Of a stretch of 5,109 nucleotides of DNA, positions 2,976-3,512 are shown piece after piece. A model generated the notes under the pieces. The model did not search any database. It was not told where the DNA came from and worked only from the letters and a program-made list of their open reading frames with translations. The translations under genes and the position numbers were made by a program. The DNA is from a virus. Lineage: Duplodnaviria; Heunggongvirae; Uroviricota; Caudoviricetes. How positions within the stretch are numbered: position 1 is the stretch's first letter; the number at the start of each line of letters is the position of its first letter. The DNA lies in IMG/VR virus record IMGVR_UViG_2695420889_000019. One strand, given 5' to 3'.

Positions 2976-3512
2976 CTACTGAGCAAATTTAAGAAAGATA
3001 TCCTGCAGCTCATCAATGACTGCAGACATCACATAACCGCACTGTTCCATGCGGAAACCAAAAGACTCGTAATACTGCACCAGTTCTGGTACTGGCTCTA
3101 CAATGTGGACAACTTTACATTCAACAGCTTTACAAAATATAAAAGCACTCATAAGAGTGAGTAAAACCATGCGCCCTTTCAATGGGTGAGATTCATCTTC
3201 TCTAGAAAACCTTTCGATCATATGGATACGAAAGATGTTTTCTTCAACCCCATAAACACAAATTGCTGCTCCTGATGGTATTCCCTGAACCCGACCTTGC
3301 TGAACAAGTTTTATGCAGAACTCATACTTTTCTCTGGAGTTGCCATAGGTGCTTAACGCATAGTCCCATTCAAGCTCACCATAGCCACCACACAGAATCT
3401 TGTAATCATCATCACTGAGCGGACCAACAGCAAGAGGTAAGCCGACATGATCAATAATCAACTGGATATTGTTACGTACAGATTGACCTATCTCGTCTAG
3501 GGTAAGCATCAT
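2976..3512 (-). CDS. Hypothetical protein (178 aa), possible GNAT-like acetyltransferase fold (weak)
   Basis: Long minus-strand ORF in A+T-rich DNA. The C-terminal half (RIHMIERFSREDESHPLKGRMVLLTLMSAFIFCKAVECKVVHIVEPVPELVQYYESFGFR) loosely follows GNAT motif A/B topology, but the canonical R/Q-x-x-G-x-G/A is degenerate. Tandem ATGs at 3512 and 3509; the weak GAGAG RBS fits the second better. Confidence 0.55.
   Translation of the reverse strand: MMLTLDEIGQSVRNNIQLIIDHVGLPLAVGPLSDDDYKILCGGYGELEWDYALSTYGNSREKYEFCIKLVQQGRVQGIPSGAAICVYGVEENIFRIHMIERFSREDESHPLKGRMVLLTLMSAFIFCKAVECKVVHIVEPVPELVQYYESFGFRMEQCGYVMSAVIDELQDIFLKFAQ

Follow-up and report, generated by a model that had tools for sequence, protein, structure and literature searches.

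What kind of protein is encoded by the open reading frame (ORF) of 178 amino acids (aa) at positions 2976-3512 of a 5,109-nucleotide stretch of phage DNA, and does it act alone or together with the product of the 57-aa ORF that follows it? The stretch, referred to as the window throughout, belongs to the IMG/VR virus record IMGVR_UViG_2695420889_000019 (Caudoviricetes). An original prediction, made from its letters alone, proposed a possible core of the GNAT acetyltransferase fold for the 178-aa protein. Both ORFs were found on the minus strand where they had been described, the small one 196 bp downstream of the large one. At 100% identity, the whole window matches the chromosome of Escherichia coli O145:H28 RM12581, where a lambdoid, mEp460-like prophage is integrated in dusA; the window takes in the right end of this prophage and the neighbouring chromosome. 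The analysis identified the two genes as a GNAT-fold accessory module in a two-gene architecture that is new within the literature and catalogues searched, in which no published description or function of the family was found.

For the GNAT protein, an AlphaFold2 model built with 45 homologues reached a predicted local distance difference test (pLDDT) of 81.8 and a predicted template modelling score (pTM) of 0.82. The elements of the model follow each other in the order α1, α2, β2, β3, β4, α3, β5, α4, β6 and C-terminal helix, and both the core element order of the GNAT superfamily and a structural match to solved GNATs were found. The alternating strands and helices noted earlier in the C-terminal half were reproduced by the model, with β4 at residues 93-101, α3 at 114-130, β5 at 134-138, α4 at 142-149 and β6 at 161-165. 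A Foldseek search of the PDB returned 138 matches at E<=1e-3, including AtaT, RimJ, Gcn5, KacT, TacT and NatD; the best 50 of the 138 were all GNAT-fold proteins or chains with a GNAT domain. In BFVD the top matches were mostly named acetyltransferases, the others being unnamed or uncharacterised and a few carrying other names, and three fold searches agreed on GNAT acetyltransferases at the top. The identity between the GNAT protein and its structural matches amounts to only 7-19%.

On the sequence level, a broad profile of 65 members, reaching down to about 16% identity, gave six matches to PDB sequences at E<=10, all of them GNATs, and the best one, to nourseothricin acetyltransferase (5c82), was weak (E=0.015). 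The Pfam model Acetyltransf_1 was touched by one of the 65 family members (E=0.0058). Matches to armadillo and gp41 proteins, obtained with phmmer and with a narrow profile against the PDB sequences, were rejected as spurious noise. Since the fold searches and the broad profile all pointed to GNATs, the earlier structural inference holds, and the structure prediction that had been suggested as its check returned a GNAT fold rather than a confident fold of another kind. The protein is thus a GNAT at the fold level, and at the sequence level it is an outlier outside all curated models.

The caveat that motif A is degenerate was also confirmed. Between β4 and α3, in the place of motif A, the protein carries HPLKGRM instead of Q/RxxGxG/A, within the stretch HPLKGRMV formed by residues 109-116 (window 3165-3188). 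In the alignment of hidden Markov models this loop lies opposite EHRG-HGVG of nourseothricin acetyltransferase and is about three residues longer than the loop in 5c82. Within the family, H109, P110, L111, G113 and M115 are invariant. A second group of invariant residues, Y148, G152 and F153, was identified in the alignments A1 and A6; in the broad alignment A2, which includes the most distant relatives, Y148 is at least 90% conserved and W49 is invariant. Y148, the counterpart of the Tyr in ...AYRRMGF of 5c82, is located at the general-acid Tyr position of many GNATs and has a putative catalytic role. With Y148 and E100 the protein offers residues at the catalytic positions expected for a GNAT, a Tyr in α4 and/or an acidic base on β4 or β5. 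In the N-terminal half, the acidic stretch SDDDY...ELEWDY is conserved along with W49. Judged from the alignments, this pattern of conserved residues looks like a specialised working active site and not like a decayed one, and the GNAT protein is most likely an acyl-CoA-dependent N-acyltransferase.

The ORF was shown to be a real, conserved prophage gene. The match to phrog_4350 spans the full GNAT protein (E=2e-103), and 51 homologous clusters at 90% identity were identified in Enterobacterales and Shewanella. Among 1.84 billion representatives, only 99 clusters at 50% identity were found at E<=1e-3, so that the family is small and sharply delimited. For pairs in which the synonymous divergence (dS) is not saturated, the ratio of nonsynonymous to synonymous divergence (dN/dS) of the GNAT gene to its homologues is 0.05-0.26, and purifying selection was found to act on both the GNAT gene and the 57-aa gene. 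The ORF comprises 178 aa when read from the first ATG, and the RefSeq protein has 177 aa and starts at the second ATG at position 3509. All homologues begin with ML(T/S)L, and the GAGAG run resembling a Shine-Dalgarno sequence is better spaced for the second ATG; a protein of 177 aa from 3509 is more likely than one of 178 aa.

The 57-aa ORF had been considered an improbable partner of the GNAT gene for its position downstream, which turned out to be wrong. In all of 100 GNAT-anchored loci (99 loci and the window), drawn from GTDB genomes, IMG/VR and an assembly index, the GNAT gene is followed on its strand by a homologue of the small gene, at a distance of 77-197 bp downstream. These loci represent 36 distinct protein pairs, and the hosts are Escherichia, Pseudescherichia, Enterobacter, Franconibacter, Photorhabdus, Xenorhabdus, Brenneria, Edwardsiella and Shewanella. 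In a metagenome scan made with alignment A6, the small gene was again downstream and on the same strand in 35 of 35 evaluable loci. In total, 135 evaluable loci with at least 36 distinct pairs were obtained, in which the partner gene codes for 54-61 aa and is followed by a terminator, and no GNAT gene without the small gene was found among them. The distant relative P0064 was not counted, because its contig ends at the GNAT gene. The search was also made from the other side: a profile of the small protein identified 105 clusters of 30-89 aa, and the three divergent clusters inspected (30-34% identity) each had a GNAT homologue of 162-185 aa (38-43% identity) 80-115 bp upstream. A truncated GNAT gene beside an intact small gene, suggested for locus L102 by the gene-caller table, was rejected when the full GNAT ORF was found to be intact there. 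The 57-aa gene is an obligate partner of the GNAT gene. This strict co-inheritance makes a two-component module, possibly similar to a toxin-antitoxin (TA) pair, more plausible than the original prediction allowed.

The 57-aa gene is preceded by a good Shine-Dalgarno sequence, and its product has no match in Pfam or NCBIfam. In the AlphaFold2 model of the small protein (pLDDT 65), a single helix at residues 15-32 is flanked by disordered basic tails. The two proteins of the window differ in charge, with an isoelectric point of 10.5 for the small protein and of 4.8 for the GNAT protein; across the pairs the values are 4.3-5.3 for the GNAT protein and, with the exception of the P2-type version, 9.7-10.8 for its small partner. 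The C-terminus of the small protein is conserved in the family as E-x-Q/H-G-K/R-x-K/R...(K)AA and reads ...E-x-Q-G-K-x-R-R-R-K-A-A in the window. For C-terminal ClpXP degrons, the sequences ..LAA in ssrA, ..VAA in RseA and RRKKAI in MuA have been described (PMC8138137). The C-terminus of the small protein resembles these degrons, a likeness in sequence only.

The pair is carried by a mobile cassette with defined ends. In blastn comparisons with six unrelated phage contexts, the homology extended exactly from window position 3519/3509 to 2561/2556. Every aligned cassette elsewhere ends in an equivalent GC hairpin and T-run, with compensatory changes. In the spacer between the two genes, several inverted repeats were identified, including TTACC-N5-GGTAA, CCAATCG..CGATTGG and AAGTTAGC..GCTAGCTT, and their stems vary between lineages in a compensatory or wobble-compatible manner. 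About 11 nt separate the ATG of the small gene from the end of another hairpin, GAGAC(G)..(T)GTCTC. Such a hairpin in front of the Shine-Dalgarno sequence, with a stem of 4-7 bp and an end 10-12 nt before the ATG, is present in 19 of 24 distinct loci with differing stem sequences; each of these hairpins taken alone scores no better than 20-35% of shuffles, and divergent loci were misaligned by MAFFT. In locus L088, one spacer hairpin (6655-6673) scores as terminator-like. A search of Rfam gave no family match for the spacer. Its repeats may serve in attenuation, in processing or stabilisation of the mRNA, or as an operator. One candidate RNA was considered for this region, the 193-nt, ArcA-regulated sRNA-17 of an mEp460-like prophage in E. 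coli RS218, whose authors had defined 'intergenic' regions after removal of hypothetical genes (PMC7719688). It was rejected, its sequence being absent from the window.

The GNAT part of the cassette was found to be exchangeable. The last 230 bp alone (cassette positions 728-959), containing the small gene and the terminator, were matched by megablast in about 200 further E. coli genomes. In the two of these genomes that were inspected, the cargo is replaced by a 190-aa protein with a SocA/Panacea domain (PF13274, E=2e-19) and a 128-aa ORF, and the 57-aa gene is retained in third place, 40 bp downstream. Extrapolated from the two inspected, the Panacea or a similar type appears to account for about 200 of the 561 E. 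coli genomes with the small gene. Pairwise alignment showed that the borders of the replacement are sharp, the right one being located just 5' of the Shine-Dalgarno sequence of the small gene. Panacea proteins act as antitoxins in TA pairs that have been validated and are often carried by phages (PMC8832971). The exchange of the GNAT part for a Panacea module identifies the slot as a cargo site for conflict-type modules. Thus, the small gene without the GNAT gene is common and the reverse was never found, which is the pattern expected of a toxin that depends on its antitoxin. A second sign of exchange was obtained from synonymous sites: in the same phage pairs the dS of the GNAT gene is saturated and that of the small gene is 0.08-0.5, with 1.33 (GNAT gene) and 0.08 (small gene) when the window is compared with locus L069. 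This contrast points to recombination between the two genes, by which GNAT alleles are swapped on a conserved backbone of small gene and xis.

The cassette was identified in at least six unrelated phage positions. In this window and in mEp460 it is located between xis and the dusA attP. In two Brenneria phages it follows 40-59 bp downstream of a CI-type repressor gene, and the slot directly downstream of cI is that of rexAB in lambda. Another version is located between the antiterminator gene Q and the holin/lysozyme genes, the classical site of stx and other morons. In P2-like prophages of Edwardsiella and E. coli the cassette adjoins the portal gene in the gpA-gpQ region; a Photorhabdus myovirus and a Pantoea siphovirus carry it within their clusters of tail genes, and it further occurs at the end of a satellite-like element that encodes a D5-type primase, ProQ and PerC, and at a prophage end in Shewanella. 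The gpA-gpQ region of P2 has been described as a hotspot of anti-phage systems, including old and tin (Rousset et al., PMC9122126). With its sharp borders, its exchange in sister prophages and its own terminator, the cassette behaves as a phage moron. Among isolated phages in GenBank it is carried only by mEp460 and one other, Eeyore (42% identity), which marks it mostly as a prophage gene. The complete cassette of the lambdoid version is present in 357 of 5,426 complete E. coli genomes, among them those of Shiga toxin producers (STEC) of the O157:H7, O145 and O111 types. For the P2-type version, more than 1,700 indexed blocks of the assembly collection contain the small gene.

In the window, the cassette lies behind the orphaned 5' end of the native dusA gene. 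This remnant (MHGNSEMQK...APMLD followed by RMYRF) reads toward the cassette, and 126 nt lie between its stop codon and the GNAT start at 3509; on the minus strand no terminator was predicted between 3763 and 3512. Alignment with the attP of mEp460 placed the crossover between host and phage near 3657-3667. At the attP of mEp460, a surrogate dusA 5' ORF (MHDNPEIQK...APMLDRMYRF) was identified at the equivalent place. With the surrogate dusA at attP and the native one at attR, integration would therefore swap the promoter that feeds the cassette; the general behaviour of dusA-integrating elements has been described (PMC4482086). Within the shared DNA, the region upstream of the GNAT gene yielded no sigma-70-like promoter. 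As no such promoter of its own was detected for the cassette, the host dusA promoter is the likeliest source of transcription after integration, and in this lysogen the cassette is probably transcribed from it constitutively. An internal promoter of the form TTGG(C/T)A-18-TAnnnT, seen by eye in the spacer of many loci, is not claimed, since a consensus promoter scan of the spacer found none in the window or in locus L088. The expression of the cassette appears to depend on its context, with the dusA promoter used here and the cI operon in Brenneria. The coordinates of the cassette and of the other features are given in Table 1.

Table 1. Features of the window and replacement segments in two Panacea-type loci (residue numbers refer to the 178-aa protein)
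Feature	Position	Strand	Remarks
Mobile two-gene cassette	2561..3519	minus	about 950 bp; extends between the terminator and a point about 7 bp ahead of the GNAT start
Divergent GNAT-fold protein gene	2976..3512 (including stop)	minus	mEp460 gp23; WP_000956557.1; phrog_4350
Glu100 codon	3213..3215	minus	strand β4 (IHMIE); invariant in A1 and A6; candidate general base
H109-P110-L111-K112-G113-R114-M115 codons	3168..3188	minus	β4-α3 loop in the place of motif A
Tyr148 codon	3069..3071	minus	α4 motif YYESFGF; invariant in A1 and A6
Intergenic spacer	2780..2975	minus	196 bp; DNA-level homology between unrelated phages; alignment of 22 distinct loci
57-aa basic partner gene	2606..2779	minus	mEp460 gp24; WP_000654815.1; phrog_2741 (PHROG E=8e-36)
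Intrinsic terminator	2562..2587	minus	GAAAACCCGCC-TTTA-GGCGGGTTTTT; terminator scan; shared convergently with the xis end
Replaceable cargo segment	2796..3595		GNAT gene with leader and spacer; xis, terminator and small gene are retained
Panacea replacement segment in L110	1983-2971 of L110		equivalent to window ~2796-3595
Panacea replacement segment in L111	1986-2974 of L111		equivalent to window ~2796-3595
Orphaned native dusA 5' end, attR	3638..3766	minus	35 dusA codons, RMYRF, stop; RefSeq pseudogene 'tRNA-dihydrouridine synthase'
Ea22-like gene	358-879	plus	early-left phage gene
S-adenosylmethionine (SAM)-dependent methyltransferase ORF	843-1364	plus	overlaps the end of the Ea22-like ORF if the first ATG is used
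Rv2179c-like 3'-5' exonuclease gene		plus	early-left phage gene
PrtN-type excisionase gene (xis)	2250-2558	plus	
DUF2713 ORF	4123-5109	minus	chromosomal; 328 aa

The reading favoured here, with a confidence somewhat short of even, is that of a lysogen-expressed TA-like or abortive-infection module in which a GNAT effector is restrained by a basic small protein. In such a module, the acidic GNAT enzyme, as the effector, would transfer acetyl to an amino group on an essential target, related to translation or of another kind, and the basic, largely disordered small protein would bind and restrain the enzyme. By its degron-like C-terminus ...RRRKAA, the small protein might be a short-lived substrate of ClpXP, and the enzyme would be released when the supply of the small protein falls, for example upon infection or prophage loss. 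The nearest folds acetylate α-amines, either of aminoacyl-tRNA (TacT/AtaT) or of protein N-termini (NatD/RimI). The TA-like reading is favoured because of the asymmetry in the co-occurrence of the two genes, the hot-spot positions and the interchange with Panacea modules, and also because of the opposite charges, the disordered and degron-like partner and the fold neighbours that acetylate α-amino groups. Several observations weigh against it. The GNAT protein has no match in Pfam or NCBIfam, its motif A-like loop retains only the central Gly of Q/RxxGxG/A, and the confidence of the model is lowest in this loop, with a pLDDT below 50 at residues 108-110. NatD, RimI and Naa20/50, which are harmless N-terminal acetyltransferases, match the fold as well as the toxins do. 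The long structured spacer (77-197 bp) and the order with the enzyme first are atypical for a type II TA system, and no DNA-binding domain can be recognised in the small protein. Identities within Enterobacteriaceae are 95% for the small protein and 70% for the GNAT protein, whereas antitoxins usually evolve fast. The small gene stays intact beside the Panacea module and may therefore have a role of its own. In PADLOC (PADLOC-DB v2), neither protein gave a match in the lambdoid-type or the P2-type version. Taken further, the pair may stand for an uncatalogued family of two-gene conflict systems, in which a diverged acetyltransferase is encoded first and a ClpXP-labile basic restrainer follows after a structured spacer. 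Such a family would have passed between phages (lambdoid, P2-like and others) and satellites through the exchange of cassettes, would be wired to a host promoter on integration into dusA, and would serve in abortive infection and/or prophage addiction; as a whole, this extended proposal is possible and on balance doubtful.

The chief rival, rather unlikely if far from negligible, is a non-toxic enzyme of lysogenic conversion. It would acetylate a component of the host or of an incoming phage, or the small protein itself at its N-terminus or its conserved C-terminal Lys, and would change the physiology of the lysogen or exclude superinfecting phages without killing; the small protein would then be a substrate, a cofactor or a specificity subunit. 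Its conservation above that of the enzyme is what a constrained substrate or effector would show, locations behind cI or at the end of a prophage suit any moron expressed in a lysogen, and the small gene persists without the GNAT gene. However, a module of the TA type serves as the other cargo at this site, and the fact that the GNAT gene never occurs without the small gene, the reverse being common, argues for an enzyme that depends on the small protein. That the GNAT fold is catalytically inactive, and serves as a scaffold which does not bind acetyl-CoA and acts through contacts to proteins or nucleic acids, is improbable. The replacement of motif A by HPLKGRM, the extension of the loop by about three residues relative to nourseothricin acetyltransferase, its low model confidence and the absence of any GNAT sequence model at threshold would fit such a scaffold, but GNATs bind the pyrophosphate through backbone amides, so that degeneracy of the sequence is tolerated at this place. 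Moreover, the loop itself is invariant at H109, P110, L111, G113 and M115, and E100 and Y148 are conserved throughout the family, including members at about 20% identity, as in a working site.

Two further explanations concern the pairing and the ancestry of the genes. The two genes might be mere neighbours, the 57-aa gene being an independent backbone or regulatory gene, linked for example to xis or the attachment (att) site, and the GNAT gene a single-gene moron. The roughly 200 E. coli genomes that keep the small gene beside xis with different upstream cargo are consistent with this, as is the low dS of the small gene (0.08-0.5), far below the saturated dS of the GNAT gene, which indicates recombination between them. 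It is nevertheless very improbable, since the pair moves jointly into at least six unrelated contexts without xis or att nearby, the shared DNA runs from the ribosome-binding site of the GNAT gene to the terminator after the small gene, and the pairing holds at 30-40% identity of both proteins. Hardly credible, finally, is a classical member of the GNAT/DUF1778 (RHH) TA family, such as TacAT, AtaRT, KacAT or ItaRT, or an acetyltransferase for aminoglycosides or streptothricin, even with AtaT, KacT and TacT among the best fold matches and nourseothricin acetyltransferase as the best profile match in the PDB, at only E=0.015. The original prediction had named both tRNA-acetylating toxins and antibiotic acetyltransferases. 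The features that define the former, an upstream RHH antitoxin and an intact motif A, are lacking: no DUF1778/RHH gene is located upstream, where the dusA remnant and the att site are found instead, and the partner is encoded downstream, is unrelated in sequence and has no Pfam match. The suggestion of an antibiotic acetyltransferase found no support, as neither the Pfam Acetyltransf models nor NCBIfam, including its resistance models, gave a match. For both families, the identity of 7-19% to all structural matches counts against membership.

Around the cassette, the minus strand of the window carries, from right to left, the DUF2713 gene, the orphaned dusA 5' end, the GNAT ORF, the 57-aa ORF and the terminator. 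In the free phage mEp460 the two cassette genes, gp23 and gp24, are located between xis and attP, and the integrase gene is on the opposite side of attP. For the SAM-dependent methyltransferase, the RefSeq start is later, at about window position 876, and the matches to Pfam methyltransferase models are weak (E about 6e-4). The 328-aa DUF2713 ORF matches phrog_28007 with residues 1-40 and phrog_29005 (DUF2713) with residues 83-328, as if two small genes had been fused; in this region the GC content falls to 0.30-0.37, and a terminator-like hairpin follows at 4056-4085. To the left of the window, in the same prophage of RM12581 (positions 2002-3868 of locus L001), a copy of IS600 interrupts a gene for an HD-family hydrolase (a yfdR-like 5'-deoxynucleotidase). 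Because of this split gene, the early-left region of the prophage is regarded as at least partly degraded.

Both proteins of the cassette are annotated as hypothetical, although they are common in E. coli, including STEC. If the module is a defence or addiction system, an acetyltransferase effector with an unusual architecture, in which the enzyme is encoded first and a small disordered partner second, would join the repertoire of such systems, and would help to explain phage resistance or prophage stability in lysogens of pathogenic E. coli. The dusA arrangement would then be a tidy case of an integration event that places a prophage gene under a host promoter. If the enzyme is instead a harmless modifying enzyme, the strictly conserved small partner is a ready candidate for its substrate.

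In comparison to known systems, the cassette shares with TacT/TacA, AtaT/AtaR and KacT/KacA the organization as a two-gene module on mobile elements, the combination of an acidic enzyme with a small, largely disordered partner, and the conserved Tyr at the general-acid position in α4 of the toxins. It differs from them in its degenerate motif A, in the lack of a Pfam GNAT match and in the identity of only 7-13% to TacT, AtaT and KacT. Unlike in these pairs, the partner is encoded downstream and not upstream, is separated by a structured spacer of 77-197 bp, and has neither an RHH/DUF1778 domain nor a recognisable DNA-binding fold. The paper on the NetFlax TA network contains no mention of GNATs. 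To NatD/Naa40, RimI and Naa20/50/60 there is no sequence relationship, and the Q/RxxGxG/A loop is not conserved in the GNAT protein; these enzymes are housekeeping proteins and, unlike the GNAT gene described here, are not borne on phage cassettes. The Panacea modules (PanA/SocA, DUF4065) occupy the same slot in sister prophages, from the dusA-proximal att site to the 57-aa gene, but their proteins are unrelated and, unlike in the GNAT cassette, the antitoxin is encoded first. With rexAB of lambda, old and tin of P2 and the systems of the P2/P4 hotspots, the cassette shares its locations downstream of cI and in gpA-gpQ beside the portal gene, and likewise the form of a compact cassette with its own terminator and a patchy distribution among related phages; unlike these systems, it has no PADLOC match, and no relationship to them in sequence or fold was found. 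The GNAT TA pairs are therefore resembled in logic, and not in architecture or ancestry, and rexAB and old/tin are resembled in genomic behaviour.

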